Source: Mytilus trossulus
Taxonomy: Eukaryota
DNA length: 64,000 bases
Assembly (NCBI RefSeq): GCF_036588685.1
Contig: NC_086376.1
Location: forward strand, 30,628,001 to 30,692,000
Reading direction: 5' to 3'
The translations under genes were made by a program, and so were the position numbers. Below, piece after piece: positions 1 through 58,227 of the stretch (positions are counted from its first letter, which is position 1; the number at the start of each line of letters is the position of its first letter). The notes below the pieces were generated by a model. That model made no database searches. It was not told the DNA's origin and saw nothing but the letters and a program-made list of their open reading frames with translations.

Positions 1-147
1 CTATCAATGCAACTGTACTCCAGTTAAGGTATTGAAGGTTATACAAATACCTGCCAGTTCAGAAAAATTCATGATTAAGAAATTATTATTAAACATGTTA
101 AGTGATTAGTATTACCCCTTTATGTGTATTCTCTCTTGCAATTGTAG

Positions 148-2454: not shown

Positions 2455-5400
2455 ATTGTCTGTGGTCGTAAAACACAGTCTACATAGGCTGTCTGTGGTG
2501 ATTAGATACAGTCTGTAGATCTTGTATGTGGTCATGAGATACAGTCTACATATTCTATAAATGGTTGTTAGATACAGTCTGTAGATCTTGTATGTGGTCA
2601 TGAGATACAGTCTACATATTCTATAAATGGTTGTTAGATACAGTCTGTAGATCTTGTATGTGGTCCTGAGATACAGTCTACATATGCTGTAAATGGTTGT
2701 CAGATTCACTCGACATATGTTGTCTGTGGTTGTTGGGTAAAGTGTGTGTATGGTGACTGTGATTGTTAGGTGTAGTATACATATGTTGTCTCTGGTTGTT
2801 AGATACAGTCTGTATATGGTGACTGTGGTTATTATATACAGTGTGTTAATTGTTTCTGTGGTTGTTAGATGTAGTAAACATATGTTGTCTGTGATTGTTT
2901 GATACAGTGTATGTATGGTGTCTGTGGTTGTTAGATACAGTCTGTATATGGTGTCTGTGGTTGTTAGATGTAGTATACATATGATTGCTGTGGTTGTTGG
3001 ATACAGTGTATGTATGGTGTCGGTGGTTGATGGATACAGTCTGTATATGGTGTCTGTGGTTGTTAGATGCAGTGTGTGTATGGTCTCGGTGGTTAATAGA
3101 TACATTCTGTATATAGTTTCTGTGGTTATTAGATACAGTATGCAGATGGTGTCTGTGGTTGTTAGATGTAGTATACATATGTTTTCTGTGGTTGTTAGAT
3201 GCAGTCTGTATATGGTGACTGTGGTTATTAGATGCACTCTGTATATGGTGACTGTGGTTATTAGATGCACTCTGTATATGGTGACTGTGGTTATTAGATG
3301 CACTCTGTATATGGTGACTGTGGTTATTAGATGCAGTCTGTATATGGTGACTGTGGTTATTATATGCAGTCTGTATATGGTGACTGTGGTTATTAGATGC
3401 ACTCTGTATATGGTGACTGTGGTTGTTAGATACAGTGTGTGTATGGTGTCTGTGGTGGATAGATACAGTCTGTATATAGTGTCTGTGGTTATAAGATACA
3501 GTCTGTAAATGGTGTCGGTGGTTGATAGATACAGTCTGTATATGGTGTCTGTGGTTGTTAGATGCAGTGTGTGTATGGTCTCGGTGGTTGATAGATACAG
3601 TCTGTATATAGTTTCTGTGGTTATTAGATACAGTATGCAAATGGTGTCTGTGGTTGTTAGATGTAGTATACATATGTTTTCTGTGGTTGTTAGATGCAGT
3701 CTGTATATGGTGACTGCGGTTATTAGATGCACTCTGTATATGGTGACTGTGGTTGTTGGATACAGTGTGTGTATGGTGTCGGTGGTTGATGGATACAGTC
3801 TGTATATGGTGTCTGTAGTTATTAGATACAGTGTGTAAATGGTGTCTATGGTTGTTAGATGTAGTATACATATGTTGTCTGTGGTTGTTGGATACAGTGT
3901 GTGTATGGTGTCGGTGGTTGATAGATACAGTCTGTATATGGTGACTGTGGCTGTTAGATACAGTGTGTGTATGGTGTCTGTGGTTGATGGATACAGTCTG
4001 TATATAGTGTCTGTGGTTATTAGATACTTTGTGTAAATGGTGTCTGTGGTTGTTAGATGTAGTATACATATGTTGTCTGTGGTTGTTGGATGCAGTCTGT
4101 ATATGGTGACTGTGGTTATTATATGCAGTCTGTATATGGTGACTGTGGTTATTAGATGCACTCTGTATATGGTGACTGTGGTTGTTAGATACAGTGTGTG
4201 TATGGTGTCTGTGGTGGATAGATACAGTCTGTATATAGTGTCTGTGGTTATAAGATACAGTCTGTAAATGGTGTCTGTGGTTGTTAGATACAGTCTGTAT
4301 ATGGTGTCTGTGGTTGTTAGATACAGTGTGTGTATGGTGTCTGTTGTTGATGGATACAGTCTGTATATAGTGTCTGTGGTTATTAGATACTTTGTGTAAA
4401 TGGTGTCTGTGGTTGTTAGATGTAGTATACATATGTTTTCTGTGGTTGTTAGATGCAGTCTGTATATGGTGACTGCGGTTATTAGATGCACTCTGTATAT
4501 GGTGACTGTGGTTGTTGGATACAGTGTGTGTATGGTGTCGGTGGTTGATGGATACAGTCTGTATATGGTGTCTGTAGTTATTAGATACAGTGTGTAAATG
4601 GTGTCTATGGTTGTTAGATGTAGTATACATATGTTGTCTGTGGTTGTTGGATACAGTGTGTGTATGGTGTCGGTGGTTGATAGATACAGTCTGTATATGG
4701 TGACTGTGGCTGTTAGATACAGTGTGTGTATGGTGTCTGTGGTTGATGGATACAGTCTGTATATAGTGTCTGTGGTTATTAGATACTTTGTGTAAATGGT
4801 GTCTGTGGTTGTTAGATGTAGTATACATATGTTGTCTGTGGTTGTTGGATGCAGTCTGTATATGGTGACTGTGGTTATTATATGCAGTCTGTATATGGTG
4901 ACTGTGGTTATTATATGCAGTCTGTATATGGTGACTGTGGCTGTTAGATACAGTGTGTGTATGGTGTCTGTGGTTGATGGATACAGTCTATATATAGTGT
5001 CTGTGGTTATTAGATACTTTGTGTAAATGGTGTCTGTGGTTGTTAGATGTAGTATACATATGTTGTCTGTGGTTGTTGGATGCAGTCTGTATATGGTGAC
5101 TGTGGTTATTATATGCAGTCTGTATATGGTGACTGTGGTTGTTAGATACAGTGTGTGTATGGTGTCTGTGGTTGATAGATACAGTCTATATATAGTGTAT
5201 GTGGTTATTAGATACTGTGTGTAAATGGTGTCTGTGGTTGTTAGATGTAGTATACATTTGTTGTCTGTGGTTGTTGGATACAGTCTGTATATGGTGTCCA
5301 GGGTTGTTAGATGTAGTATACATATGGAGTCTTTGATTGTTCACACAGTATGTATATGGTTTCTGATATTGTTAAATACAGTCTACTTATGGTGTCTGTG

Positions 5401-5730
5401 GTACTTAGATGTCGTATATATATGTTATCTTTGGTTGTTTAATACAGTCGATATATTATGGCTGTGGTTGTTATGTACAGTTTGTATATGTTGTCTCTTA
5501 TTGTTATATGCAGTATCTACAGGGTGTCTGTAATTGTAAGGTACATTCTGGTATTCATTATCTATGGTTGTTAGATGCAGTTTGTATGTTTTGTCTGTGG
5601 TTAATAGGTATAGTCTATATTTATTAGGTACAGTCTGTATATTATGTCTGCGGCTGCTAGATGCAGTCTGTATAAGGTGTTTATGGTTGTTAGGTACAGT
5701 CTGTATTTGGTGTCTTGGGTTGTTAGATGC
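2455..5730 (+). repeat. 33-bp minisatellite array A (~100 units), consensus TCTGTGGTTGTTAGATACAGTCTGTATATGGTG
   Basis: Direct tandem periodicity; 11-aa periodic ORFs on both strands. Higher-order 759-bp (23-unit) duplication: ORFs 3839..4036 and 4598..4795 are identical. Degenerate edges, with remnant units resuming at ~5930-6030. Confidence 0.97.
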
Positions 5731-5734
5731 AGAC

Positions 5735-5905
5735 GTGTAATTCGGAGTCCAGTAGGACGTCCAGTATCACTGAACTAGTATACATTTTTGTTTAGGGGCC
5801 AGCTGAGGGACACCACCGGGTGCAGGAGTTCTTCGCTGCAGTGAAGACCCATCGATGGCCTTCTGCTATTTTCTCTTTGACACATTCCATATTTCCATCC
5901 TCAAT
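5735..5905 (+). mobile_element. SINE-like interspersed repeat fragment inserted in the decayed edge of array A
   Basis: GACGTCCAGTATCACTGAACTAGTATACATTTTTGTTTAGGGGCCAGCTGA...GAAGACCCAT is present again as a reverse complement at ~31600-31910. Confidence 0.7.
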
Positions 5906-6227
5906 TCCATGTCATAAGTTGTCTTTAGCTGTTTTTTGCAGTCTGTATATAGTGTCTGTGGCTGTTGCTGTTATATATACTGTTTATACGTATTACAAAA
6001 ACAATCTGTGGTATGATTGTTTATTAGATAACTCTTCTCAAAAGACAAAATGAGTGAAGTGCGACAACCTTTAATTTGGCAATCGCACAACGGGTACAGA
6101 GGAGGGTGCATGAACGTAATGATAAGTGTGTGTTTTAAATTAGTTAGTGACAGGGATAAAGATTAAACGGTTAGCAATTGAACATTATTTGTTTTTCATA
6201 TGTCTATTATTTACGATCACTTCGATA

Positions 6228-6932: not shown

Positions 6933-7679
6933 ACGACAATGTACGGCAGCGTAGTTAGAATATTTTGCATCATTGAAACAATAAGAAACCAAGATAATAA
7001 TAAGTTAACGGTCATTTCAGTAAGAGTAATAATAATTGAAATTAATGATTTGGGTCAATATCACTTAAAATGCATATTCAGACAAGGAAGTGAATGCTTA
7101 CAATGATAGTGATGTGATTTAAACCCGCTTTGAAATCAAGCAACACTGATCTTCATTTTTTGAACTGTTTAATTCCAAATGTTGTCATGCACAAGAAGAC
7201 GTGTGACCATACACAGACTAATTGGTATGATCCCGTGTCTACAACTATTTGTCCTATTTACCAACTTCTTGCTGGGAATTGAATGTTAAGCCATAGTACG
7301 AAGATATAATATAAAAACTTCTGAACTGCTGATCCACGTAGTTTTACATGTATGTTAGACCATAGATGTGGTTATGAAGGAACTGAAGAATGTTCACGAA
7401 TAACCTGTATTTCAAAGTATGTCACTGTATTGACCTTTGTCTCTACGTGTATTAGTAAAGTGTTATGCATTGAGTGTAGTTCATTTTTATACAAATGTAA
7501 TCTTCTTGAAACATCTTTTTGACCGACAACTCACATCCGGTCATGGTAGGTATGATAAGACGAAGAAAACTGTATGCATCCACGAATTTGAATATCACGT
7601 TGGTATCTTTCGAAACTTCCATAAGAACCAAAACATGCATAAAAATCTGTATCCAGAAACATTGACATGCATAGAAAAC

Positions 7680-10600
7680 TAGACCCTATAACAATACCGT
7701 GCAGAGACAACATCATATTATTACAAAGTCATGTATGATCAAGTATAGAGAACTTGTACCTAGGAACCATACCATGCATAGACATCTTGCCTCTAGAAAC
7801 CATGATATGCATAGACACCGTCAATCTAGTAACAATACCATGCATTTATAACTTTAATCTATGAACAATACCATGCATATATTACTTGAATCTATGAACA
7901 ATACCATGCATTTATAACTTGAATCCATGAACAATACCCTGCATTTATAACTGGAATCTATGAACAATACCATGCATTTATAAATTGCATCGTGGAACCA
8001 TACCATGTACAGATAAACCTGTATCTTGGAACCACACCATGCATTGATAACCTGTATCTAGGAACCATGTCATACATTGATAACCTACATCTGGGAACCA
8101 TATCATACATTGATAGCTTGTATCTAGGAACCCTGTCATGCATTGATAACCTGTATCTAGGAACCATGTCATACATTGATAACCTGCATCTAGGAACCAT
8201 GTCATACATTGATAACCTGTATCTAGGAACCATGTCATACATTGATAACCTGTATCTAGGAACCATATCATGCATTGATAACCTGTATCTAGGAACCATG
8301 TCATACATTGATAACTTGTATCTAGGAACCATATCATGCATTGATAACCTGTATCTAGGAACCATGTCATGCATTGATAACCTGTATCTAGGAACCATGT
8401 TATACATTGATAACCTGTATCTAGGAACCATATCATACATTGATAGCTTGTATCTAGGAACCATGTCATTCATTGATAGCTTGTATCTAGGAACCATATC
8501 ATGCATTGATAACCTGTATCTAGGAACCATGTCATGCATTGATAACCTGTATCTAGGAACCATGTTATACATTGATAACCTGTATCTAGGAACCATATCA
8601 TACATTGATAGCTTGTATCTAGGAACCATGTCATACATTGATAGCTTGTATCTAGGAACCATATCATGCATTGATAACCTGAATCTAGGAACCATGTCAT
8701 GCATTGATAACCTGTATCTAGGAACCATGTTATACATTGATAACCTGTATCTAGGAACCATATCATGCATTGATAACCTATATCTAGGAACCATGTCATA
8801 CATTGATAACCTGGATCTAGGAACCATGTTATACATTGATAACCTGTATCTAGGAACCATATCATACATTGATAGCTTGTATCTAGGAACCCTGTCATGC
8901 ATTGATAACCTGAATCTAGGAACCATGTCATGCATTGATAACCTGTATCTAGGAACCATGTCATACATTGATAACCTGTATCTAGGAACCATATCATACA
9001 TTGATAGCTTGTATCTAGGAACCATGTCATACATTGATAGCTTGTATCTAGGAACCATATCATGCATTGATAACCTGTATCTAGGAACCATGTCATACAT
9101 TGATAACCTGTATCTAGGAACCATGTTATACATTGATAACCTGCATCTAGGAACCATGTCATGCATTGATAACTTGTATCTAGGAACCATGTTATACATT
9201 GATAACCTGCATCTAGGAACCATATCATACATTGATAACCTGTATCTAGGAACCATATCATACATTGATAACCTGAATCTAGGAACCATGTTATACATTG
9301 ATAACCTGTATCTAGGAACCATATCATGCATTGATAACCTGTATCTAGGAACCATGTCATACATTAATAACCTGTATCTAGGAACCATGTCATACATTGA
9401 TAACCTGTATCTAGGAACCATATCATGCATTGATAACCTGTATCTAGGAACCATGTCATACATTGATAACCTGTATCTAGGAACCATGTTATACATTGAT
9501 AACCTGCATCTAGGAACCATGTCATGCATTGATAACTTGTATCTAGGAACCATGTTATACATTGATAACCTGCATCTGGGAACCATATCATACATTGATA
9601 ACTTGTATCTAGGAACCCTGTCATGCATTGATAACCTATATCTAGGAACCATGTCATACATTGATAACCTGTATCTAGGAACCATGTCATACATTGATAA
9701 CCTGTATCTAGGAACCATGTCATACATTGATAACCTGTATCTAGGAACCATATCATGCATTGATAACTTGTATCTAGGAACCATGTCATACATTGATAAC
9801 CTGTATCTAGGAACCATGTCATACATTGATAACCTGTATCTAGGAACCATATCATACATTGATAGCTTGTATCTAGGAACCATGTCATACATTGATAGCT
9901 TGTATCTAGGAACCATATCATGCATTGATAACCTGTATCTAGGAACCATGTCATACATTGATAACCTGTATCTAGGAACCATGTTATACATTGATAACCT
10001 GCATCTAGGAACCATGTCATGCATTGATAACTTGTATCTAGGAACCATGTTATACATTGATAACCTGCATCTAGGAACCATATCATACATTGATAACCTG
10101 TATCTAGGAACCATATCATACATTGATAACCTGAATCTAGGAACCATGTTATACATTGATAACCTGTATCTAGGAACCATATCATGCATTGATAACCTGT
10201 ATCTAGGAACCATGTCATACATTAATAACCTGTATCTAGGAACCATGTCATACATTGATAACCTGTATCTAGGAACCATATCATGCATTGATAACCTGTA
10301 TCTAGGAACCATGTCATACATTGATAACCTGTATCTAGGAACCATGTTATACATTGATAACCTGCATCTAGGAACCATGTCATGCATTGATAACTTGTAT
10401 CTAGGAACCATGTTATACATTGATAACCTGCATCTGGGAACCATATCATACATTGATAACTTGTATCTAGGAACCCTGTCATGCATTGATAACCTGAATC
10501 TAGGAACCATGTCATACATTGATAACCTGTATCTAGGAACCATGTCATACATTGATAACCTGTATCTAGGAACCATGTCATACATTGATAACCTGTATCT

Positions 10601-10782
10601 AGGAACCATATCATGCATTGATAACTTGTATCTAGGAACCATGTCATACATTGATAACCTGTATCTAGGAACCATGTCATACATTGATAGCTTGTATCTA
10701 GGAACCATGTCATACATTGATAACCTGTATCTAGGAACCATATCATGCATTGATAACTTGTATCTAGGAACCATATCATGCA
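7680..10782 (-). repeat. 33-bp minisatellite array B (~90 units), + strand unit CTGTATCTAGGAACCATGTCATACATTGATAAC
   Basis: Tandem periodicity. Higher-order 858-bp (26-unit) duplication: the rare ATTAATAA variant occurs at ~9363 and ~10221. Left edge is degenerate; right edge is sharp. Confidence 0.97.
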
Positions 10783-13413: not shown

Positions 13414-16400
13414 TTACACCCTATCTAGTGCACATGTGAACTCTGTAAGGTTGAGTTGGTCTACATTTTCACCAACACAATGGCTCTTCTTGTGGAAGAA
13501 TTTACAGCAAGTAATGCACTTCACCTAAAAAAAGGAATATAAATATGTGATATAATTCCTGGTTACACCTTTTCTTGTACTTTATCATCTTGATATTTTT
13601 TAAAGACAAGTTCTCTGTATAAAGCCTTGTACTAATATTGATTTGATTGTTAAAAGTTCAATCCAAAGTACATAATTATCAACAAGTGATAATAATAAGT
13701 TATTAATCAAATATCTTTTTCTATAACTGCTATTCTATGGGGGTTATTAATCTATCATGCTTTTTTATAAGTTGAAAAAGAAGGGATCATGAAAATTCAA
13801 AGCTTTAAGGTAATCTAAATTTATAAATGAACAAGTTTTCAAAATATGTCAAATAAAATGTAAATACTTGCATTAAATTTTAAAACTTTTAAAAATTCAG
13901 GCCTTCACAATATTAAGATATAAGCTACACCTATCACCAAACAAATACATTGCTACAAAATACATTTTAAGTCAGATGTTAATGTGACTAAAATACCTTA
14001 TGGGAATAAACCTGGCTCTTATCTATCTAAAAAAAAATCTTGAGTAATTTGTTTTCTTTGTTGATAATGACAATCACAAAATGTTTATGACATTGTAGTG
14101 ACAATGTTGTATGTTAAGCAGAGGAATGAGCACTGTCAAATGTATTAATAGAGCATGATTTTTTTTTTTAAATCTGTGGTGCTGTCTTTTTTGGTAGCTG
14201 CCATGAATGTTTGCATTTAACAAAATAAAAATGTCATTTTCTTTTCTGACAAAAAATGTAAATTAACATAATTATAAGATGAAGACAGTTTAAAATAGTA
14301 CCAAGGGTTCTGCAACTGGGTTGGTGTGGTAACCACAACAAGGACAGCAGCCTTCCATATATCCTGTAATAGAAAAAATAAGTTATTAAGAGTTAAATGT
14401 GGAATAAAAGTTATCACACATTAATATTCAAAAGTAAAAATTATTAAGTTAACATTTTTATATAATTCTTCAGTTCTGGAAGTAGATCAAGAAAAAGACA
14501 GATAATTGTGTGAATCATTGGTTTCATCAAAAAGCAAATAAGATTAAACAAAATCTGGTACATTTAATATGTAATAAAATGCCATTAGAATGATTGAAAG
14601 TTACCTTCAAACATCATCAGACTGCGGGCAATACTTTTCCTTTTCTGATTCGATTCAGCTGGCGTTATATGTAACGAAGTTCTAGCCAGGTATTTGTCTG
14701 CAAACTTATAAAAAAAATCAAATTATACACTTAATTAAAGTAGCCCAAAGGTTTTGTATATTTACTGTAATATGTTTTTATGAACAGTAACTAGTAACAG
14801 TTTGTATGTATACAACAGGGATCATGTACTGCCAAATACTGATACCCCATGTAGGCAATGAATGTGAATATGCATTGTACAGTATCAAAGTGTACTCAAT
14901 TCTAATTTTTAAGGAAGTTCTGATTAGCCAAACGGGGATGAAATTAAATTAATTTCTTTTTCAGACAAATTTAGACAAAAATAATAGACTAATTTTAATA
15001 CAAGGCATGTGTGTAAACAGACAAAATAAATTCCTTTGATTGTATGTATTCCTCTTCCTTTTTCCCCTACTTATTAGTTATTGTAACAACTGATCAACTA
15101 CCCATTGTCATCTACTGGTATATGTTCTTTTATACAAAGAAATAGTAAAGTAAAGTTAAGAATTAGATAACCATAAATTAAGGGAAGAAAACTGAATCTG
15201 GTTTATCATAACACCACCAGCATTCTTTTCTTTTTATTTGAATGAGGTAAACACGTTACTAAGAAAACATATTTCTGTGAAAGAGAAAGCAGGTCAATAC
15301 AATACACACCATTAGGCAATAAATTCCACAGCTGGATCCGTCCTGTTGCTTGGAATGAGTTGGTACCTCTAGGTTCCACTCTTTATCTATAACAGCAGCA
15401 TCTGCTGGAAACTGGAGTAGAAGTTGTTCAATGAATTTTCTGAAATGAAAAAAAACAAATATGACATTGACCATTGACCAGTCACATTGGACTGATATCT
15501 TTTAGAAAAATATTTGCTAAATCCTTTTATAAACCTAATGCAACCTCACTTTCACCTTGTATAACTGAATTGCATGTAGTTTGTAAATACCCAGATGTTC
15601 CCTTTATATGACAGAAATATTCCTTGCCCAATAGGTTTAAGGAGTCATTAAAGAAATGTCATAGATGTTTCACAGTTTGAATGAAATCTGATAAGTGATG
15701 AAATATATATTTGTATGTTGAAACCAGTTCTAAGAGGTTTATAAAATTACTGTTTTTATTGCAATTGTAGGCAACATTATCAATATGTTCAAAGGATATG
15801 TACTGTGTCATATTTGAACATATATGAATATGATGACTGATTTGAATGGTTGAAGTAAAATTATTGTGCTCATTTATTAAATGTTAATTTATTATTTGTG
15901 CATTGACACAAATCGACAAATTCAAAATAATTACAGGTACATTTTGTTGTTGAGTCTTTGGTGCAGCATTGAGCATTGATATTTTTTTATTTTATTTTAC
16001 AATATTTTTAACATGTTCTTACTTCCATCTTAAAGGAACTGTCCTCATCTGGAAATCTGTTTCACCCATTGGATTAAGGAAGATAATCCTTCCATTTAAA
16101 GGTTCTATAATCTAAAATAAACAGGTTAAATAAAAAAATCTATCGCTATCTCTCCTTATAAAAGCACATGCATGCAAATCTAATATACAGTGTATTATAT
16201 AAAAAGCAAAACATCTTAACCTTTTCAGTGTAGTGTCAGTCAGTCTTATCACATTAATCTAGCATGCTATGCATTACTAAATAGTAGCGCAATGTTTCAG
16301 TCAGGGTATGGTTATGGCCTTACCATTATTAAATATGCAAGAAATAAGGAAATGTAGCTCTTATCAACAAATGTATATTTTTATAAATTGGCTTGAATGC

Positions 16401-19400
16401 CCTAACCATTTTCTGGTTCATTTCCATCTTTCTTACCTAGCATATATTATTTTGTGAATATTGAATTTGCTTTTAAATATTATATGTTATTCAGGTCTCA
16501 GACAGGGTATATACTGTGACATTCCTGGCTTAGAGTTTATATCGCCTGAGCCGAGGCGAAGGGGATATAAGCCCTAAGCCAGGAATGTCACAGTATATAA
16601 CCTTTCTGAGACCTGAATTACACATACATTACGGATTACCCCTGACTTTTAATGTTATTTTCCAGTGCAGGTAATTGTTGACAACATATATATATTGAAA
16701 AATCAAACCTGATATATTCAGCGTACGTGAAGGATTTTCTTATTTGCTGTGAACATAATTTTATCATGTATGTAATAATTTTTAATAACACTTTTAACAT
16801 TAAATTTAAGTATTAATAGTGTAAATTGCGTGATTTTGTATCAAAAATGTATTATTGACTGAAGCACGTCATTCTTTTCCCTCTGTGAGCCTCTGACAGT
16901 CTGATAGCTTTTGACTACATCACATAGTAACTGGTGTTATGATGCCTTTTTGAGGTTCCAATTGGAGAGAAAAACATGGTATAAACCCCAGCAGTTTCCT
17001 GAATATATACTGACATCTCTGTGTTGTTATCCAATCACAAACCTCGACACATTTGTAATCCGTAATATATTGATATATTTTCATAATCATTTCATTAAAC
17101 AAAATTATACTAATAGAAAAAAGATGAACACTTACCAACAAATCCCAGTGACTTCCACTTTGGTGGTATGCACCAATTATGAACTCAGTAGACATCAATA
17201 TATTCTACAAAAAAAAAAAAAAAATCAAATCATACAAAATCTTAGCACATGGAATTCATCTCCTGAATAATTCACCTCCTGAATTTCATTTCTATACAAA
17301 TAAAAATGTCTAAACAAATGAAAATATATATAAAAAATATGTTACTTAGATCACTTAGTTTTAGAAAATAGTTGTTATATTTGATAGAGTCACACATTAT
17401 ATCACTAGACAAACTACATGTAGCTTCATCAGCTCATCATTAATCAGTTAACATTAAACACTGGATGCTGTTGAGAAGTTTTTGCAGGTTATTTTACATT
17501 TCATACAAACAGATCTAATGGTTTTGTGACATTGAATAAGTTTCTTCAGGGTTCATTCTGTCGGTAAAAAAAAATAAAACTGTTTTCCCTTTTCTAAAAT
17601 GGAACGGATTATTTCTTTGACTGGATCTTAGGATCTTTTACAACAGAAATTTTAGGTAATCTGCCATAAACTCCATCTTCTTACCTTAAATATCATGTAC
17701 TGCAGCCATATTTTTTTAACACCAACAGCTCCTAGAAATTAAATTCAGACAAAACTAAATCATTGTCTCCTAATTTTCCAATACAGTATGCCATCAAACA
17801 GGACCCTCCCAAATTTGGTTTTATTGATGTACTTTATAGTATAATATAACAAAAATTGTGTTTTTAAAACAGTAATTATACAGTTCCCATATAGGAACTA
17901 TACCTTATCATTCCGTGCAGGAACATATTCCCCATTTAAAATGTTGTTGGTTGTTGTCACTAACATATGCTTTATTTTTATACCGTTTGCCATCTCTCTA
18001 TTGGCAACAAGTTCTAGGTAGGCGTCCATTATCTGAAAAAGAAAAAACAATGACAAAATACAATGTTATGCCTTAGCATAAATATATTACACATCAACAC
18101 TGAAAACCAAAAAAAATATCAGTGGTCACAGATGCTATTAATGTTGCAAAAAAAAAAAGCATCTACATTTTATCATTTAAAGAATATACTCAATTTGATT
18201 GCAATCTCCATGTATATAACATAATTGACATATATTTACTTTATCAGTAACCCAGCTGTTCTTTTTCAGAGAGTAAATATCTCCATACGTGATGCTAGTT
18301 CCATATACTTTTGCAATAAAGTAATGTGACCAGGGTGCAATTTGGTCCTCCCAAATCTTTGCTATCTTAATAGCAGCTGAAAAAGAAATATTGCTTAATC
18401 ACAACAATAAAAGAAAAAGTAGTAAATATCAAATAATCATGTGTCCCACACCTTCATTAATATGCATATTAGCAAAACAATCAAAAAAACATTGAAGATA
18501 ATAATAGAATTCATATTCATGACAAAAATCTTCTTTTTGCTAATTTGTATTGCTGATCATTTATTTTTTGTTGTTGATATCTATCTTCTTTAAAGGGCAA
18601 AGAGTTATATAAAGAGTCACATTCTAATAAGTATTATGACAAATTTTAACTTGCTTGTAGAGCTTGCCTTGCTTATCAAAGTTTCTTTTTATCTATCATA
18701 AGTTTAAAGACATAAAAAAATGGTATTTTTTTTATTACACAACAATAACTCTTATAATTGTTCAACTGACAACATAACCTTGCAAACTTAAGACATCATT
18801 TAGCCAATATAAAGATTCTCATTATCCGTCAATTTTTTACGATAATAGGCAGAAATTTAAAAAAAAAAAATGGTTAGGGCAATAACTTTAGTTATAAATA
18901 TCTCAAAATTATTCCATTACCAACCTTTTTGTCTATCAATTTCATTGGTTGACAAGGAATCATCTTCAATTGATGTTGAAACACCTTTAAAAGAAATAAG
19001 TAGACATGAAAAGGTAACCATATCTTGTCTTATATATAGTAATAAATCATATTCTGAAACAAAAACATCATGGGGTGATGCTAAGAGTTGTTATCCTGTG
19101 ATTTTGTAACTGCTGTCATCCTTTTTTTTTCTCTTGACTATTTTTTATCTATACACATAACAGGAAATTCATCTTATCAAAGGAACCCTGTCACATAAAG
19201 GGAGATAATTCAAATTATAGGGATGATTACATAGATAAAGTTAAATTATAGAATAAAAAGATGTTGTGGATTGAGCTATTTTAATATGTAGCAAGAAAAC
19301 AAGTCTGATTTTTTCTTTTATTATCTGGAAACATGATATAAAAGCTATCTTTTCAATTATATATGAAAACTCGAGGGTTAGTTCCTTTTTTCACACAAAT

Positions 19401-22400
19401 TTGGATTTACCATCCATAATCTATACAAACCTGAAATATTTGCACAGGTAATGTGAAAAAAAAATCTGGTGACTCTGGTTATTATTGAAAAAAAGATTGA
19501 TCAGAAATACATTATGACAACTTATATACACCTTAAATTAAGGGCAAAAACTTTAAATAAATTGTACAAAAAGATGAATGAATCATGTATGAATGAAACT
19601 GTACAAGTTTTTTTTATTTTTTAATGTTGGTCTGATAAAATCACCCTTACCTATCAGCTGAAAACATTTTTAATCTGAAACAATTGGACATTTGAACATA
19701 AGTGTTTCTTTTTTTCATAGCAGTTACACATTGTTAGACAACTAAGGCCAAAATTATTAAATGAATATAAGTACCTGCATCAGGACTTGAATGCTCTACA
19801 AAAGAAATAATGGAACATATAAAACAGAAAGTTAACCAATGGTTTTTGTACTTTGAGTCGATTTAATGAATTTCAACCTTATCTATCATTTATTTGTAAA
19901 AGTTGGTTTAAAGATTTTATTTTTACATCACTGATATAAATTAAGGATCAGGTTACGCACTCACAAACAAGTTTAATCCTCTCCTTAACTCTGGTTTTGT
20001 CAATTACAAGTCAGTAGCAAGCGATTGAGTAGTTTTTGGCTAATGTCTGTCCTATTCAGTATTTTTACATATATAAACCAGATTTGCTAATAGGAATTGT
20101 CTGACATTTTAGGATAAAGTTATTAAAAGCTGCTTTGCCTATAGGGTGTAGGTATTGCTTATTATCTAGGGTCCTGAAGTGACATATATTTTCTTACATC
20201 TTGTCATTTACAAATTGAATAGTGTTTTTTAAAATAACTCATAGCTGGACTAACCTGTACACATTTTCTTCGGTTGGGACTCTTTAAAATCATCATCTTC
20301 CATTCTGTCTTTTGACGTACTGCAAAGGTAAATATTAAATTGGTCAACCAGATAATTTCTTTCACCTTTATTTCTCGCATGCATTAGGTCTATGGAAATA
20401 TTTTTCCTCATACACTTTAATCATTTACCAAGAAAAATAATTTGATTATTACTGGTAATGTACAAAGTAACAAGTCATGCTTTCATTAATATATGTGTTA
20501 AAAAAATAAACAGGCATAACTCTATAGAACAATTAAAGTGACACCCCTAAAATTCAAACTTGATGCATACATTTTTAGGGGAAATAAGCATTGTCTATAA
20601 GTTTCATAACATTTATTTGAGGCAAACTGGAAACAAAAAATTCAACACTTTTTCCATTTGTAAAGATGAATTACTCTAGAACAATGAAGTTTATGTCACA
20701 AAAAATCAACCTTGATCTGTATTTTGTAGTAATTATCATTGTTCATTAGTTTTGTGTATCAGTTTCATAACATTTAGTTGAGACAATCTGATGTTAGTAA
20801 TTCAATCAAACTTTTGGATATGCAGAGATATGTATGTACAGACAGACAAGGGTAAAATTGTATGCCCCCTCCGCTATAGCAGGGCATACAAATATGCACT
20901 GTGTGTACTATATATGTTGATAAACATTTAAATTAAATAATTTTGGTTTAAACAATGACAATATCTATAGTGTATATCCAATTTTTTTCGCCAATATACC
21001 TAATCCATACCTTGTGTCTGTAAATGTTTGTTCTGATTTACTGGAACATATTCCCTGAGAAGGAAAAAAGAAGAGTGCAATATAATAGTAATTTGTTCAT
21101 CATATATTGGAATATAATTGTAGTTTTGCAAAACAGTATAAAAGGACATGCTATTATTAACATGTCATTTCTACAATGAACATTTATGATACATTTTTGC
21201 AATGAATGTGGCACAGAGATTGATACAAAACAATAAATCATTGCTTTGTTTCTTTTTATATTATTCATATATTGCAAGACACAGAATTGATATCTTCATT
21301 GTGTAGTCTTGCATATGCTAAAATGATATGGCAATTAGTTTTTACCGTTAGAGGACACTAATATCAGAACAAAATTATGTAAAGACATAGCAAATAATTT
21401 GTAAACTTCTTACCTTTAAAACAAAAGTTTTGTATGACTCAACCACAGACACACATTGCGCCCTACTTAAACGTTCTTCTGAAAAAAACAGAATAATTCT
21501 TAAAATATCTACTGGGTATAAAAGAATGGTTAGAAATACCCTTTAGAAAACACCACCAACATGTATATGCTATATAAATCTTATGTACAAAACCTTATTT
21601 ATGTTGTAGAAATTATTTTTTTTTTTTAGATTTTTAGTAAAAGTTGTAAGTGTTTAATGGAATGCTATCACAAAGAGATGACAGAAGCACACAGTCTTTT
21701 GCTATGCATATGTCTGTAAAATTTCCATGGCTATGATACAGTTACTAAATATTATTACAAAAAAATCATTTTATGAAACACAAGAAGACTTCTTATGGAT
21801 ATGATTTTGGTATAAGGAGAAAAACAAAAATAAATTAAAATCATTATGGAGGTCCTTATTTCAAGTTTGATGACAAGGAGAAAAGCACTAATTATAAGGT
21901 TTAAGTATAAAAATTTGAATTCATAAACAATAAACTGATACATTTTAGGAAATTCACTTTTATTACCTGGTGAAAACAGATATGTGTCAGAAAACTTGTG
22001 ACTGGTACAACAACCTGGTACAAATTTAAAGGTATAAACTTAAATCTTAATTAAACACAACAAATATATATATTGTTCTTTAAAACTGTTGACCTATAAC
22101 CTGTTAATTTATACAAAGGAAAGGAAAAGTGGACAGTCATATTATATATTTTCCTACAATGGGTTGTTATTGAAGTTTAATGACACATGCATTTTTTCCC
22201 TGAAATGTCCTATAAATTCAATAAATTGTTCCAAATTCTAAATGACTTACTGTTTTTGTTGTCATTTGGTGACACAAAGGGTACCTCCTCAGGGTACCAT
22301 TCTGGGGCCAACTTTCGTATACCCCAGAATCCTCTCTGTATGTTGAGCCTGCTGAAAACTGGTAAATAGAAAAAAATGTATAGTTTCAATGTATGAAAAT

Positions 22401-25400
22401 TAAAGACCTATTTGATTTGTATTATCATCTCTAACAACTTAGTTGAAGTTGATATTTGTTATGAAATTTTCTTAAAACTTTTACAGAATGGTGATTTGGT
22501 ATGTCTACAGTTTGAATTTCAAATTTTGTTCGTCAATCAAAAAACACATAATGAAAATTGAACTTACAAATTTCTGAATTGAAAGTTAAATTGTGTACCT
22601 TTCAAAAATTTAGTCTGTTAAATAGCATAATATTTATTTTTAACACACAAAAAAATTAAGTCTCAACTAGTGCCATACAAACCAAAAAAGTGTGTGAAAT
22701 TGTGTATAAATATAAAACATACATGACAATAATTAGTTATTATATAGAAAGGTATAAGCAAAGCAAAAATTATAGTCCATATATATGTAAAGAGAAAATT
22801 TCCATGACAAAATTCCACATGAATCTAAAATACTCTGCACATATCTGTTAATGTAGGATATCATATTATATATATCATCTAAAACTTTCACCAAAAACAG
22901 GATTGATATGTGTTTCTGTTGGGAAAAATTGTTTAATCATTTACCTTCAATGCCAATTCTATTTATATTAAAAGTGTTCCATATTAACATGCAATGTGCT
23001 CATTTGTAGATCTATTAGTATTATATATATATATATATATTTATAAATATGAATATAATATTTTGTCTAAACGTCAGTCTAACAATGTAAGATCTGTAAA
23101 TATATATATCTTAGTAGTATGAGTTCACATCCCATTGAGGGAAGAACAGAAAATTGGCGTATGCAATTTACAGTTTTAACATTGTTGGGCTGTTATTTTA
23201 GACAAATTATATCTATTTATATGGAAGCATGGGTATATTCACACAATATCTTTTTACAAGTATGCATAAAATGGTACAGCTAGCTAGCATTTTAAACATG
23301 AAATACTTATTTGTATATAGAATCAATGATTAAATTTTCTTTTTTTTATCAACTTAGTTTTCTCGTTTGAATTGTTTTACATTGTCCTATCGGGTCCTTT
23401 TAAACCTATATGGTATGGGCTTTGCTCATTGTTGAAGGCCATCTATTGACCTACAGTTGTCAATGTCTGTGCCATTTTTGGTCTCTTGTGGACAGTTGTC
23501 TCATTGGCATTCATACCACATCTTCTTTTTTTTATATTTGTCACATTAAACAGAATTGGATATCTTCAAAAAAGGTTGAAAATAAACATGGTATTCAATT
23601 TTTTCCATAAAATGTATGCTGGCTTCTACAGTGAATAAGTAATAAGTGCTGAATTAGGTTTTTTTCCAGAATTATGAGAAGATCAATAATATTCAGTACT
23701 AATTTTCAATAAAGAAAACAGTGTTTTAGGTTCATTTACTATTCAAGCTAAGACTAACTTGCATATAAATCTAGTAAATAATTGGGTAGTCTACTTCAAA
23801 GTTTAATGAAGGAGTAGAATGATATTATGATACAGATAAGTAGAAGCAGTCACCACAGCTAGGAACACTTAGTACAAGTTGTAGAGACACCATAAGCTAC
23901 ACATTATATAATAATCTCAAATCACAAATACTTACCAAATATAATCTCCTTTAATATAATTGTAGTGATATTGTTATAGTTAATAAAGACAAATATATAA
24001 AAAAGCAAATGATTCATACATTGCATTTAAAAAGTAATAATAGTATATCAATTTTATCTTTTTCCTATGGGGTCAGTTTTTAATTGCTTGAGGAAGCTGG
24101 AGATCTACTGACCTTCAGTACAAAAACTGATGATCGTAGTCACTTAAGATAGAAGTCAGGTACACAAGCAGGTGATGCAGCGGTAAAACAAATTAAACCA
24201 CTGGATCACCAAGTATAACTAACATTTATACATAAATGTATTAAAAATATAACTATGCTGACCAATTTTCTTTTCTATAAACAAATACTGTCCTGTTTGC
24301 AATATCATATATCATATATTATTGTAAAGACCGTTTAATGCAGTGTCATACTGTAAAAACAAAAATTTTCATGGAGGATTTTTTTTTTTTAAATTCGTGG
24401 AAAGAATATTATATCCACAAAATTGAAACCTCCAAGGAAATTTAACTTACATATGATATCACTTCCCTTTACTGGAAACCACGAATGTAAATTCCCATGA
24501 AATCTTATATAGAGACAAAACCATGAAATTTTTATCCCACTAAAAAATAAATGTTTCTGCAGTATCTGTCAACATTAAAAGGTGTAAAATGCCTAATGGT
24601 GTCTGCCTTTTTAAAAACTCATTATTGCATGTAGAAATGGTAACATCCTAAATTTGATAAATAACTGTAACAAACATGATCAAAACACTACAACTATCTA
24701 AAACTTACCATCTGTGTTGACAATATCTGCCATCACCTTCCTTATGTTATGTGTATTGGCATTGTCTATATCCATGGTTGCCACTCCTTCAAAATATGAA
24801 TATTTTTAAATGTAAAGCACATGTGTATCAGCTTGTAGTATTTGTTACATGCTTATTATTCATAGATGATATGGCATGGTTACCTGTTTTTAATATTGTC
24901 TGCCTGTTGAATAATGTATTACTTTTGTTGGAGTTGCTCTCTTAAGATTTCAACATTGCTTATGTTTGTTAGTATATCAATGTTTTCATTTTTATTGTTG
25001 CAAAGTGTTTGTCCATCTTTATTGATTTAATGAACTTGTTCATGTCTTGGCATTATCTGCATAGCACATAAAAAATTAAAAATTAAAAACATAAGAAAAT
25101 AATAATTCAATCCCAAACTTACACTTAACTATATAATCATTTATGATACATATGTCAACTTTGTCTGGGCTAAGTGGAAAAAAGAAGTTTGGCTTTGACA
25201 AAGGCTAAAAACCACACCCCATAAACCACAATATCCGTCAGATCAGAACTTTTAATTAAGGTTGCCAACAAACAAATTGCATTTGCACTCAGTATCATTA
25301 ATTAAAGGGGGAAAAAACACATTGCTCTGTACATCTTATCATTCAAAAATAAAAGAAAAATACCTAAATTTATTGAGGGTGCACAGACTTCTATCTTTGT

Positions 25401-28400
25401 TGCAGCCTGGACAAAATCATTGGCAATCCTTTGCCCAAAGCCTTTCATGTGGTCAGGACCTGAAATTACATTTATCATCAAAATATAAATACACATGTAA
25501 AAAAGGAAACTCCATGTACATTTTAAAATAAACTGTTTTGCTTATAAAAAAGATACCTTATCTTCTCAGTTGAAATTGGTAAAAATTCTATTTCTATCAA
25601 TAGCAATATTTCATACTTCAAATACTTGTGTCTTCAATAAAAATGAAACCATATCTGTGCTTACCACAAAACTCAACTGTTTTTGAATCTTTGTTAATCA
25701 TTATAGATACAATAGTATCCCCTCTGTCCAACATCTTATTCACCTGCAAGTAAAAAGAAATTTATCAAACAAACTTGAATACTAGTCAAAACAGATCAAG
25801 CGTACAGAATATCATATATACATAAAAAGACATTGATAAAAATTCTATCTATAAATTATTTTTTTAATGTAAGCCTTTGTTAAAGAACACCATTTAGAAA
25901 AAAAATCTGAGTTTCAATGTAAAAATCTAATAAAGATACTGAAACATAAAAAGAAATGACACCTATTAAATGTTTGGTAATGAAAGTTGTTGCAAAGAAT
26001 ATGAGTTATTAAAGCTACTACTGCAATTGTAATTTGATGTTGAACTTACAACTGCCTTCACCTTTTCCCAATCTTCCTCACTTTTTCTGTCCTATAAATA
26101 TATAATAGAAATTATTTACATATTGGCACAGTAATTATGCACTTCCATTTTTTGTTGTTGCAAAAACTATAACAACAAATGGGAATCAAAGATAATGAAA
26201 CATGTAACACCTGTTAATATTGTAAAACAAGATGATATGTATATACATATAATGAATTATCGATATAGAGTCTTGATATATTATCTGTGCTCATAGATAA
26301 AGGTTTATGTTGTTCTAAGAAACTATCTATTTGCCTAGTATTTGCATTATCTATGGTTCTTAGGTATAGTCTGTATGAGTTGTCTTTGGTTCTATATACA
26401 ATTTTTATGTCTTGTCTGTGGTTCTTAGGTAAAGTCTATATGTAATGTTTGTGGTTCTTATATACAGTTTATATGTCTTGTCTGTGGTTCTTAGGTACAG
26501 TTTATATGTCTTGTCTGTGGTTCTTAGGTACAGTTTATATGTAATGTTTGTGGTTCTTTTATAGTTTATATGTATTGTTTGTGGTTCTTATGTACAGTTT
26601 ATATGTCTTGTCTGTGGTTCTTAGGTACAGTTTATAAGTCTTGTCTGTGGTTCTTAGGTACAGTTTATATGTCTTGTCTGTGGTTCTTACATACAGTTTA
26701 TATGTATTGTTTGTGGTTCTTAGGTACAGTTTATATGTCTTGTCTGTGGTTCTTAGGTACAGTTTATATGTAATGTTTGTGGTTCTTTTATAGTTTATAT
26801 GTCTTGTCTGTGGTTCTTAGGTAGAGTCTTTATGTCTGTGGTTCTAAGGTAGAGTCTTTATGTCTGTGGTTCTTAGGTACAGTCTATATCTATTGTCTGT
26901 GGTTCTTAGGTATAGTCTTTATGTCTTGCCTGTGGTTCTTACATACAGTTTATATGTCTTGTTTGTGGTTCTTAGGTACAGTTTATATGTATTGTTTGTG
27001 GTTCTTAGGTACAGCTTATATGTCTTGTTTGTGGTTCTTAGGTACAGTTTATATGTCTTGTTTGTGGTTCTTAGGTACAGTTTATATGTATTGTTTGTGG
27101 TTCTTAGGTACAGTTTATAAGTCTTGTCTGTGGTTCTTAGGTACAGTTTATGTTTCTGGTCTGTGGTTCTTAGGTACAGTTTATATGTCTTGTCTGTGGT
27201 TCTTACATACAGTTTATATGTCTTGTCTGTGGTTCTTACATACAGTTTATATGTATTGTTTGTGGTTCTTAGGTACAGTTTATATGTCTTGTCTGTGGTT
27301 CTTAGGTACAGTTTATATGTATTGTTTGTGGTTCTTTTATAGTTTATATGTATTGTTTGTGGTTCTTATATACAGTTTATAAGTCTTGTCTGTGGACCTT
27401 AAGTAGAGTCATTATGTCTGTGGTTCTTAGGTAGAGTCTTTATGTCTGTGGTTCTTAGGTACAGTCTATATCTATTGTCTGTGGTTCTTAGGTATAGTCT
27501 TTATGTCTTGCCTGTGGTTCTTACATACAGTTTATATGTATTGTTTGTGGTTCTTATATACAGTTTATATGTCTTGTCTGTGGTTCTTAGGTACAGCTTA
27601 TATGTCTTGTCTGTGGTTCTTATATACAGTTTATATGTAATGTTTGTGGTTCTTTTATAGTTTATATGTCTTGTCTGTGGTTCTTAGGTAGAGTCTTTAT
27701 GTCTGTGGTTCTTAGGTAGTCTATATCTATTGTCTGTGGTTCTTAGGTATAGTCTTTATGTCTTGCCTGTGGTTCTTATATACAGTTTATATGTCTTGTC
27801 TGTGGTTCTTATGTACAGTTTATATGTCTTGTCTGCGGTTCTTTTATACAGTTTATATGTCTTGTCTGTGGTTCTAAGGTAGAGTCTTTATGTTTGTGGT
27901 TCTTATGTACAGTCTATATCTATTGTCTGTGGTTCTTAGGTACAGTTTATATGTCTTGTCTGTGGTTCTTATATACAGTTTATATGTATTGTTTGTGGTT
28001 CTTATATACAGTTTATATGTCTTGTCTGTGGTTCTTAGGTACAGCTTATATGTCTTGTCTGTGGTTCTTATATACAGTTTATATGTCTTGTCTGTGGTTC
28101 TTAGGTACAGCTTATATGTCTTGTCTGTGGTTCTTATATACAGTTTATATGTCTTGTCTGTGGTTCTTATATACAGTTTATATGTCTTGTCTGTGGTTCT
28201 TAGGTACAGCTTATATGTCTTGTCTGTGGTTCTTATATACAGTTTATATGTCTTGTCTGTGGTTCTTAGGTACAGCTTATATGTCTTGTTTGTGGTTCTT
28301 ATATACAGTTTATATGTCTTGTCTGCGGTTCTTTTATACAGTTTATATGTCTTGTCTGTGGTTCTAAGGTAGAGTCTTTATGTTTGTGGTTCTTATGTAC

Positions 28401-31158
28401 AGTCTATATCTATTGTCTGTGGTTCTTAGGTACAGTTTATATGTCTTGTCTGTGGTTCTTATATACAGTTTATATGTATTGTTTGTGGTTCTTATATACA
28501 GTTTATATGTCTTGTCTGTGGTTCTTAGGTACAGCTTATATGTATTGTTTGTGGTTCTTATATACAGTTTATATGTCTTGTCTGCGGTTCTTTTATACAG
28601 TTTATATGTCTTGTCTATGGTTCTTAGGTACAGCTTATATGTCTTGTCTGTGGTTCTTATATACAGTTTATATGTATTGTTTGTGGTTCTTATGTACAGT
28701 TTATATGTCTTGTCTGTGGTTCTTAGGTACAGCTTATATGTCTTGTCTGTGGTTCTTATATACAGTTTATATGTATTGTTTGTGGTTCTTATGTACAGTT
28801 TATATGTCTTGTCTGTGGTTCTTATGTACAGTTTATATGTCTTGTCTGTGGTTCTTATATACAGTTTATATGTATTGTTTGTGGTTCTTATATACAGTTT
28901 ATATGTCTTGTCTGTGGTTCTTAGGTACAGTTTATATGTCTTGTCTGTGGTTCTTATATACAGTTTATATGTATTGTTTGTGGTTCTTATATACAGTTTA
29001 TATGTCTTGTTTGTGGTTCTTATATACAGTTTATATGTCTTGTTTGTGGTTCTTATATACAGTTTATATGTCTTGTCTGTGGTTCTTAGGTACAGTTTAT
29101 ATGTCTTGTCTGTGGTTCTTAGGTACAGTTTATATGTATTGTTTGTGGTTCTTTTATAGTTTATATGTATTGTTTGTGGTTCTTATATACAGTTTATATG
29201 TATTGTTTGTGGTTCTTATATACAGTTTATATGTCTTGTTTGTGGTTCTTATATACAGTTTATATGTCTTGTCTGTGGTTCTTTTATAGTTTATATGTAT
29301 TGTTTGTGGTTCTTTTATAGTTTATATGTATTGTTTGTGGTTCTTATATACAGTTTATATGTATTGTTTGTGGTTCTTATATACAGTTTATATGTCTTGT
29401 TTGTGGTTCTTATATACAGTTTATATGTCTTGTCTGTGGTTCTTAGGTACAGCTTATATGTCTTGTCTGTGGTTCTTACATACAGTTTATATGTATTGTT
29501 TGTGGTTCTTATATACAGTTTATATGTCTTGTCTGTGGTTCTTTTATAGTTTATATGTATTGTTTGTGGTTCTTATATACAGTTTATATGTATTGTTTGT
29601 GGTTCTTATATACAGTTTATATGTCTTGTTTGTGGTTCTTATATACAGTTTATATGTCTTGTCTGTGGTTCTTAGGTACAGCTTATATGTCTTGTCTGTG
29701 GTTCTTACATACAGTTTATATGTCTTGTTTGTGGTTCTTATATACAGTTTATATGTATTGTTTGTGGTTCTTTTATAGTTTATATGTATTGTTTGTGGTT
29801 CTTATATACAGTTTATATGTATTGTTTGTGGTTCTTATATACAGTTTATATGTCTTGTTTGTGGTTCTTATATACAGTTTATATGTCTTGTCTGTGGTTC
29901 TTAGGTACAGCTTATATGTCTTGTCTGTGGTTCTTACATACAGTTTATATGTATTGTTTGTGGTTCTTATATACAGTTTATATGTCTTGTCTGTGGTTCT
30001 TATGTACAGTTTATGTTTCTGGTCTGTGGTTCTTAGGTACAGTTTATATGTCTTGTCTGTGGTTCTTAGGTACAGCTTATATGTCTTGTCTGTGGTTCTT
30101 ATGTACAGTTTATATGTATTGTTTGTGGTTCTTATATACAGTTTATATGTCTTGTCTGTGGTTCTTATGTACAGTTTATGTTTCTGGTCTGTGGTTCTTA
30201 GGTACAGTTTATATGTATTGTTTGTGGTTCTTATATACAGTTTATATGTCTTGTCTGTGGTTCTTATGTACAGTTTATGTTTCTGGTCTGTGGTTCTTAG
30301 GTACAGTTTATATGTAATGTTTGTGGTTCTTTTATAGTTTATATGTCTTGTCTGTGGTTCTTAGGTAGAGTCTTTATGTCTGTGGTTCTTAGGTAGTCTA
30401 TATCTATTGTCTGTGGTTCTTAGGTATAGTCTTTATGTCTTGCCTGTGGTTCTTATATACAGTTTATATGTCTTGTCTGTGGTTCTTATGTACAGTTTAT
30501 ATGTCTTGTCTGCGTTCTTTTATACAGTTTATATGTCTTGTCTGTGGTTCTAAGGTAGAGTCTTTATGTTTGTGGTTCTTATTTACAGTCTATATCTATT
30601 GTCTGTGGTTCTTATGTACAGTTTATATGTCTTATCTGTGGTTCTTATGTACAGTTTATATGTCTTGTCTGTGGTTCTTATGATAGTCTTTATGTCTTGT
30701 CTGTGGTTCTTAGGTACAGTCTATATGTATTGTAAATCCCGGCATCCCGAAAGCGGAAATGAAGAATTCCCGGATCCCGAAAGGATCAATCCGGAAATCC
30801 CGAGCTTATTAACAGCCGATACCGGAGTCCTGATAAAGGTCCTATCCCCCCTCATTTGACGCAAATGGTAGCCGAAAATGACTGAAGTAAACAGACATTA
30901 CTACCCTCAAGAATACAAAAAGGTGAAGTAACTTTGGTATTTTCATCTTTTAATCAGTGGTAGATCCAAAATTGTTTATGAAGCGGCCCATAGACTGCCA
31001 CGAAGGCGGGACAGCTCCAGTCAGGCTGAAGTAATCCCTTGTCTAATCATCAATTGTTTCCAACAAAAAAGGGGGACATTTTTTTGCTTTAAAGTTTAAT
31101 GCAAAGGTTATATTTGCAATATGATGGTTCTATTTTAATGTGTTACCCTTTTCGGCAT
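13414..31158 (-). CDS. ~500-aa protein: NRF1/ewg/P3A2-like DNA-binding region + acidic linker + Ulp1/SENP (peptidase C48) domain + PHD finger
   Basis: Phase-consistent exons in transcript order: 31147-31158, 26050-26091, 25665-25743, 25364-25459, 24709-24786, 23936-23948, 22251-22351, 21414-21478, 21011-21054, 20255-20319, 19775-19795, 18925-18984, 18240-18376, 17904-18032, 17136-17204, 16023-16111, 15310-15439, 14605-14704, 14302-14363, 13414-13524 (1503 nt, no internal stop). C48 motifs: SLKKNSWVTDKIMDAYLELV, SHWDLLII, FLNPMG, QQDGSSCGIYCLMFADKYL. PHD: CPCC..VKCITCCKFFHKKSHCVG..FTCALD. The 3' ten exons are secure; the 78-nt and 13-nt exons are less so. Confidence 0.82.
15310..18376 (-). CDS. 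Ulp1/SENP-like cysteine protease (C48) catalytic exons of the gene above
   Basis: W-x-T-D-x-I-M-D-A-Y-L motif, catalytic His in HWDLL (exon 17136-17204), oxyanion Gln and catalytic Cys in QQDGSSCG (exon 15310-15439). Confidence 0.9.
16484..17070. mobile_element. Non-autonomous element with long terminal hairpin (Crypton-like), intronic
   Basis: ~140-bp near-perfect palindrome at 16484-16625 (TTCAGGTCTCAGA..ATATACTGTGACATTCCTGGCTTAG / CTAAGCCAGGAATGTCACAGTATAT..TCTGAGACCTGAA) with a GCCGAGGCGAAGG loop. Second inverted pair ATTACGGATTAC (16628) / GTAATCCGTAAT (17056). Confidence 0.6.
20500..20892 (-). mobile_element. HINE/pearl-like (Helentron-associated) non-autonomous element, decayed
   Basis: Two diverged internal repeats (AACTCTAGAAC...CTTGAT...GTTTCATAACATTT), GACA microsatellite and terminal hairpin TATGCCCC..GGGCATA. 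Confidence 0.5.
23355..23535 (+). mobile_element. Abundant SINE-like repeat (..TTGTCTCATTGGCAATCATACCACATCTTCT family)
   Basis: The same family recurs in either orientation at ~34490-34890, 40545-40810, 44620-44820, 48170-48450, 49730-49810, 51270-51580 and 52395-52510. Confidence 0.8.
24349..24564. mobile_element. TA-flanked MITE (TACTGT...CAGTA), Tc1/mariner-like
   Basis: TACTGTAAAAAC...GTTTCTGCAGTA termini with internal CCACGAA-type repeats. Relatives at 42746-42940 and 61824-62033. Confidence 0.5.
26340..30732 (+). repeat. 33-bp minisatellite array C (~130 units), consensus TCTGTGGTTCTTAGGTACAGTTTATATGTCTTG, inside intron 1 of the Ulp1 gene
   Basis: Tandem periodicity with recurrent 31-bp and shorter deletion variants. 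Higher-order blocks, e.g. 229-bp and ~490-bp offsets between near-identical ORFs. Confidence 0.97.
30735..30855 (-). mobile_element. Truncated MITE (ATGAGGGGG.. termini family)
   Basis: Reverse complement of the 5' half of the element at 58228-58427 (ATGAGGGGGGATAGGACCTTTA...CGGGATTTC). Confidence 0.75.
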
Positions 31159-36390: not shown

Positions 36391-36558
36391 AATTTGTTGA
36401 AAAAAGGGGCATAACTTTTTCAACAGTGGTGCTAGAGCCAAATTTTTTTAGGACAAATATCAGGGAACCAATACCAACCAAGTTATCAACTTTGTTTTGA
36501 CTTAAGTCTAAAAATTAAGGTGACAACTTTTGCACTCAGCGGAATTGCAAACTTGTCC

Positions 36559-40200: not shown

Positions 40201-40314
40201 GGATCTGACCGGCTAGCGCTACTTCTTGGGTGTTAAACTTATTACTTTTTTGTGTTAAAATGTTTCGTCTTTTCGTTTGTTGTTACTTTTGTTGATTTTA
40301 TTCATTGAAGTAAA

Positions 40315-58100: not shown

Positions 58101-58227
58101 TAGATTTTCGTTGTTGCTAGCTTAAAGTTCATTGGCAAATTCCATATTGCACATTCAGGATGACAATTAGTTTCTTAGTACAAGTGACCTAAATTTAAAA
58201 CTTAAAAAAAGACTTTTTATACATAAA

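Follow-up and report, generated by a model that had tools for sequence, protein, structure and literature searches.

What is the origin of three kilobase-long tandem arrays that share a 33-bp period and lie close together beside transposon genes in the mussel Mytilus trossulus, and does anything hold their sequence constant? The arrays lie in a 64-kb stretch of DNA (the window). A preliminary description took them to share ancestry, with a core and a period conserved as if constrained, and suggested that they might be phased binding sites for a protein encoded by a nearby element, or a satellite family spread by the transposon. We consider it likely (probability roughly 0.62) that they are ordinary minisatellites: one old family that was seeded separately at each site and then expanded and homogenised one array at a time, with no constraint imposed by a protein.

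Three arrays of one period

2459..5712, + strand: array A, 98 units of 33 bp, both edges degenerate (TRF and unit parsing)
7634..10777, − strand: array B, 93 units, the most homogeneous array, degenerate at its left edge only
26350..30732, + strand: array C, 135 units, including 28-, 31- and 32-bp variants
5922..5993, + strand: A-type remnant units, with PWM matches at 5922 and 5961

TRF detects period-33 arrays at 2457-5620 (plus 5624-5726), 7751-10787 and 26350-30733; together with unit parsing, this confirms that the three arrays exist where they had been placed. Each is 3-4 kb long, and jointly they comprise 326 units and 10.8 kb. The consensus strings given earlier for A and B are identical to ours, whereas that for C differs at one site, which is polymorphic (T 0.53 vs G). 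The alternating orientation is also real (+, −, + for A, B and C), but such a pattern has a 2-in-8 chance of arising with three arrays. Head-to-tail units within the ~10-100 bp range, repeated into arrays of kilobase length, are the format of a minisatellite. Long open reading frames run through the arrays because 33 bp is an 11-codon period; since several frames on both strands are open, we do not regard them as genes.

Relatedness of the units

Units are more alike within arrays than between them, the pattern of concerted evolution. Mean unit identity is 0.77 within A, 0.88 within B and 0.83 within C, and it is 0.67 for A-C, 0.53 for A-B and 0.54 for B-C. For 323 of the 326 units, the nearest neighbour is in the same array. 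In a tree of distinct units, all 33 B units form a clade and so do 58 of the 59 A units; C is not recovered as a single clade.

How are the arrays related to one another? The consensus units of A and C are identical at 25 of 33 positions, a level that none of 3000 dinucleotide shuffles attains when register and strand are left free. By the same procedure, B matches A at 19/33 (p = 0.015) and C at 19/33 (p = 0.018). The best 16-bp window between A and B has 14 matching positions (p = 0.002 against shuffles), and outside the core B shares further bases at positions 23, 25 and 29. From these identities and shuffle tests, the common ancestry of A and C, as one family, is therefore a firm reading of the sequence, and B is probably a more distant relative with shared ancestry. 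The original proposal of common ancestry with separate homogenisation is thus strongly supported for A and C and moderately for B.

Core and period

The idea of a constrained core, TGGTT(C/G)(C/T)TAG(A/G)TACAG, is not supported on closer inspection. Core matches are in excess only when B is one of the pair compared, and just 92 of 326 units have the exact core (10/98 in A, 44/93 in B and 38/135 in C). A slightly looser pattern, allowing up to 2 mismatches, gives 73 sites in A, 84 in B and 119 in C. Given the match count, matches cluster in the core for A-B (p = 0.018), and not for C-B (p = 0.13) or A-C (p = 0.81); the three-way test gives p = 0.022. Similarly, the statement that the rest of the unit has diverged holds against B only, since A and C agree at 13/16 core positions and 12/17 positions outside. 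Conservation within arrays is higher in the core than in the rest in all three (0.86 vs 0.82 in A, 0.88 vs 0.84 in B, 0.88 vs 0.86 in C), a slight advantage of 2-5 points.

Constraint on the period is not supported either: it is not strict in C, which tolerates units of 28-32 bp. There, 110-111 of 134 steps are 33 bp and the others are 28, 31 or 32 bp (~18% of steps at 28-32 bp), and the 28- and 31-bp units have been amplified as blocks. Array B has stayed at exactly 33 bp despite 42% divergence. The DNA helix makes one turn per 10.5 bp, so three turns take 31.5 bp, and a 33-bp unit exceeds them by 1.5 bp, a slip of 51 degrees per unit. The core sites are therefore not phased.

The neighbouring genes

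147..1505, + strand: KDZ (Kyakuja-Dileera-Zisupton) transposase, last three exons (147-233, 742-863, 1315-1505)
13414..26091, − strand: NRF1-like/Ulp1 gene, multi-exon; Ulp1/SENP protease with a Cys-rich tail
22251-22354, − strand: NRF1-like N-terminal exon (PDB and Atlas searches)
31147..31158, − strand: candidate first coding exon, predicted only; 4 codons with a GT donor
6235-6925: small inverted-repeat element between A and B

Both genes named in the preliminary description are real. The KDZ exons are 86-93% identical to P0002 (tblastn), and PF18758 was found on 79%-identical bivalve relatives. The gene ends ~950 bp before array A. The KDZ and Ulp1 genes converge, and arrays A and B occupy the space between their 3' ends. 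A KDZ alignment search of metagenomes returned one distant locus (L001, 5.9 kb, 34% identity) from 176 candidates; it has no tandem array at a TRF score of 50.

The C-terminal 318 aa of the Ulp1 gene product are P0010, a sentrin-specific protease 2-like protein of M. trossulus. P0010 carries PF02902 and aligns with ten exon stretches on the minus strand at 13417-20303, and an exon between B and C matches it at 100%. Upstream of the P0010 part, exons continue in the same reading frame as far as 26091. The C-terminal part of our gene model is based on P0010; the joined exon model is one base off at later exons. Relatives of the Ulp1 gene occur in five Mytilus species, with differing N-termini, one of them fused to a SWIM-domain protein (P0015). 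In a sequencing-run search for 10850-20800, 20 of the 24 matches listed hold part of the region and 7 hold half or more; they come from 11 studies, and there is no RNA run among the matches listed.

Does this gene encode an NRF1-like domain, as had been proposed? One exon resembles NRF1: its top PDB match is NRF1 itself (8k3d_A, E = 0.51), and its top two Atlas clusters are PF10491 (0.86 and 0.83). Three other exons of the gene gave no PDB match, and we therefore grade the likeness as a lead. Pfam searches of 15 single exons found nothing NRF1-like, with only FAMeT above the cut-off. NRF1 binds TGCGC half-sites, according to the available part of one source (PMC10810270). Neither TGCGC, with 13 matches in the window, nor GCGCATGCGC occurs in A, B or C, and GCGC is likewise absent from all three arrays. 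Four of the 13 TGCGC matches lie in the A-B spacer, within the small element at 6235-6925, which has two GAC(G/A)TT(T/G)GCGCTTT motifs per end in inverted orientation. Thus, the suggestion of phased binding sites falters on the slip per unit, on the irregular spacing in C and on the lack of TGCGC in the arrays.

As modelled, intron 1 of the NRF1-like/Ulp1 gene probably contains array C. A strong acceptor marks the exon at 26050-26091, which lacks a start codon; there is only one weak donor between this exon and array C, and the predicted 4-codon exon at 31147-31158 joins it in frame across the array. The intronic placement is predicted from these features. Three CCAAT boxes lie at 31259-31303, with the 4-codon exon below them. 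The CCAAT boxes at 31259-31340 may serve both directions. On the + strand, 34329-35148 has strong splice sites and would yield only a short Cys-containing peptide of ~39 aa.

Flanks and a candidate element end

5746..5910: dispersed repeat in the tail of array A, right boundary approximate; related pieces at 31605-31654 and 31850-31908
30734..30857: small inverted-repeat element, right part only, 82% identical to 58225-58347, abutting array C directly
35958..36428: cluster of palindromic TTTCC-N5-GGAAA, 16 exact sites (18 with one mismatch), then CAACAGTG
36541-36999, + strand: FAMeT-like (farnesoic acid O-methyltransferase) exon, PF12248, E 2e-22, 110 bp right of the candidate end

BLAST comparison of the array flanks with one another found short AT-rich words only. 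A search around B-C for CA..TG ends with a 7-9-bp TSD gave 7 candidate pairs, the best with 4 matching terminal bases, and no TIR/TSD pair. From these flank and end searches, it follows that the arrays fit neither the pattern of Helentron central repeats nor that of the subterminal repeats of elements with TIRs and an 8-bp TSD. An element running from B to C with inverted subterminal arrays was considered and rejected, given the lack of a TIR/TSD pair and of flank homology and the probable intronic position of C.

Two of the array borders have been disturbed. The dispersed repeat cuts the remnant A-type units at 5922-5993 off from array A, and the truncated element at array C, of which a full copy lies at 58225-58426, probably meets the array at a deletion junction. 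Both the interrupted tail of A and the truncated element at C fit unconstrained DNA.

Further to the right, 16 exact TTTCC-N5-GGAAA palindromes lie at 35958-36372, mostly 20 or 30 bp apart, where 0.06 would be expected by chance in the window. Judged from its sequence, 35958-36428 is a candidate terminus, on the right, of a large DNA transposon, and the KDZ and Ulp1 genes may belong to that element. A palindrome-cluster end of this kind may fit Zisupton-type termini. No matching left end or target duplication was found in the 64-kb window.

Array edges and a possible history

What do the arrays record of their own formation? In array A, match to the consensus of 33 falls to 25.8 and 25.9 in the edge deciles, as against 28-30 in the interior, and in array B the last decile scores 22.5/33 vs about 31.5 elsewhere. 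Diagnostic sites show C's base in 19% of cases in the edge units of A, vs 5% in its centre, and the edge consensus of A shifts toward C at two sites. No such enrichment of ancestral bases was seen at the edges of C, nor, beyond general decay, at those of B; in both arrays the share of non-own bases is unchanged. Exact internal duplications are present in each array: 516 bp at an offset of 759 bp (23 units) in A, 705 bp at an offset of 858 bp (26 units) in B, and 256/240 bp at offsets of 458 and 490 in C, where they include short units. It is possible that assembly error lies behind the long exact duplications. Degenerate edges and multi-unit block duplications are both minisatellite features, and they fit slippage and unequal exchange.

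We suggest the following history. The three arrays would be copies of one old mussel minisatellite family, with array B a likely member, at moderate confidence. Long ago, a few 33-bp units were probably copied ectopically to each separate site, by gene conversion, circle reinsertion or local rearrangement. Each array would then have expanded and homogenised alone through replication slippage and unequal exchange. It is likely that no protein keeps the core or the period constant; since units are copied whole in unequal exchange, this process may by itself maintain the period. The sites themselves are low-constraint DNA of the transposon-gene region, namely the space between converging 3' ends and a probable intron.

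Occurrence elsewhere and known systems

The A-type 11-residue repeat is also encoded outside the window, in an ENA contig of 707 bp (P0001). Identity reaches 69% over 49 residues, and ~100 residues beside the repeat have no match in the window; the contig was seen as protein only. It was the one match among 8000 scored candidates in a search with the array A translation, a low-complexity and insensitive query; an Atlas search with the same translation was uninformative. Degenerate core and unit patterns had no matches in viral, metagenome and GTDB contigs, and since these collections hold little mussel DNA, the blanks say nothing on dispersal. With a 19-base pattern, 7 matches turned up in viral contigs, all of them single and outside tandem arrays, and we take these as chance. 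Our literature search, which covered sources other than Repbase, Dfam and most subscription papers, found no description of a 33-bp family, and this is apparently an undescribed but ordinary Mytilus minisatellite family.

Human minisatellites offer a classic comparison. In Jeffreys' 33.6 and 33.15, separate arrays are said to share a core of 10-16 bp and to differ at other positions. The mussel arrays likewise share a core in separate arrays, but they are AT-rich, not GC-rich or chi-like, they keep one period throughout, and their core excess appears only against B. As in the Zisupton/KDZ elements covered by the available parts of two papers (PMC12730594, PMC9297572), the KDZ transposase of the mussel is multi-exon. 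It also has a Ulp1 protease gene nearby, and Ulp1 has reportedly been noted in fish Zisupton (Bohne 2012). Here, however, the two proteins come from separate genes that converge, the N-terminus of the protease is NRF1-like, and the TIR and 8-bp TSD given in the portion consulted of PMC12730594 were not found around the mussel arrays.

The satellitome of another mytilid, Limnoperna fortunei, is described in the accessible material of PMC12818792 as holding 129 families, 48 of them of ≤60 bp (hand count from Table S1). It has the same short head-to-tail units, kilobase-long arrays and array-specific variants, and its scattered placement may be shared as well; compared by size only, it differs in having no 33- or 66-bp family in that table and two families of 99 bp. 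Central repeats of bivalve Helentron/HINE elements (Cg_HINE, Pearl, DTC84, MgE) are, in the sections available, mostly ≤5 units of 140-180-bp monomers with conserved flanks (PMC7492417). They share with the mussel arrays a location in bivalve non-coding DNA, where related tandem arrays occur in either orientation; the mussel arrays differ from them in having 93-135 units of 33 bp and no shared flanks.

Weighing the explanations

Judged by their units, the arrays behave as minisatellites under concerted evolution do, in a family that may be dispersed. What speaks most strongly against the ordinary-minisatellite explanation is clustering in the transposon-gene interval: all three arrays fall within 28 kb inside the KDZ/Ulp1 interval and none in the other 33 kb, where there is one stray 2-mismatch core, at 49280. 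Also against it are the A-B clustering in 16 bp, the slight core excess in every array, B's exact period and the lack of ancestral-base enrichment at the edges of B and C, and its support for dispersal is one outside contig, seen as protein only. Alternatively, the arrays would be neutral passengers of one giant (>36 kb) KDZ-type transposon with the NRF1-like/Ulp1 gene on board and its end at 36428, having arisen by local copying inside the element and spread with it. We regard this as unlikely. In its favour, all arrays lie between the KDZ gene and the terminus-like cluster of 16 palindromes (0.06 expected), Mytilus Ulp1 relatives occur fused to a SWIM-domain protein (P0015), and oyster tandem repeats are mostly element-borne in the available parts of three papers (PMC8268682, PMC11136912, PMC7492417), two of which include both element-borne and standalone repeats (PMC8268682, PMC11136912). 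However, the window holds no left end or target duplication, the A-type repeat in P0001 sits beside unrelated sequence, and a divergence of 24-42% between arrays is old for one mobile copy; the arrayless L001 (34% identity, 5.9 kb) is weak evidence in the same direction.

Could selection instead hold core and period constant, with the arrays as binding sites for an NRF1-like or transposase domain of an element-encoded protein? The NRF1-like exon makes a binding protein plausible (8k3d_A E = 0.51; PF10491 0.86, 0.83), the period is shared, and the A-B core matches cluster. Set against these points are the 0/13 TGCGC matches in arrays with 4 in the A-B spacer, the lack of GCGC, the exact core in 92/326 units, the lack of core excess between A and C, the 51-degree slip and the block-amplified 28-/31-bp units of C, and we find the idea very improbable. 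An elaboration strikes us as equally improbable: the window would be the right part of a giant KDZ transposon (>36 kb, to 36428) with its own NRF1-like/SUMO-protease gene, and the arrays would be conserved modules bound by an element-encoded protein of re-specified DNA preference that might, for example, recruit the protease to shield the element from SUMO-dependent silencing. The homology of B can also be doubted. Only A and C would then form a family, and B would owe its likeness to chance or convergence among AT-rich repeats derived from simple sequence; 19/33 is indeed reached by 1.5-1.8% of shuffles, the core was singled out post hoc, and there are several other tandem families in the window. 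The identical period, the 14/16 match in one window (p = 0.002) and the extra shared bases outside the core (positions 23, 25 and 29) make this highly unlikely, and we retain B as a probable member of the minisatellite family.

Implications

What would follow from each explanation? As minisatellites, the arrays are a minor addition to knowledge of mussel repeats: a Mytilus family, apparently unnamed, in which three subfamilies lie next to one another. Such a family could serve as a length marker and illustrates concerted evolution on a small scale. If the arrays were fixed parts of a giant KDZ element, they would matter more because they would tie the NRF1-like/Ulp1 accessory protein to the transposon's own DNA and allow self-targeted anti-silencing to be tested directly. 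For element-bound sites, the palindromes at 35958-36393, spaced 20/30 bp, are a better lead than the arrays.

Other repeats of the window

Rfam gave 0 matches in the window. Other tandem arrays lie at 38956-40204 (76 bp), 57473-58099 (50 bp), 32340-32660 (172 bp) and 44107-44360 (20/40 bp); by their size, the 76-bp and 172-bp units may match satellites reportedly described from Mytilus (Kourtidis 2006). The Ulp1 gene has a 72-bp near-perfect hairpin element in one of its introns, at 16481-16626, with arms 88% complementary. At 43833-45940, inverted arms of ~95 bp stand 2 kb apart and enclose the 20/40-bp repeat, a probable non-autonomous DNA transposon.
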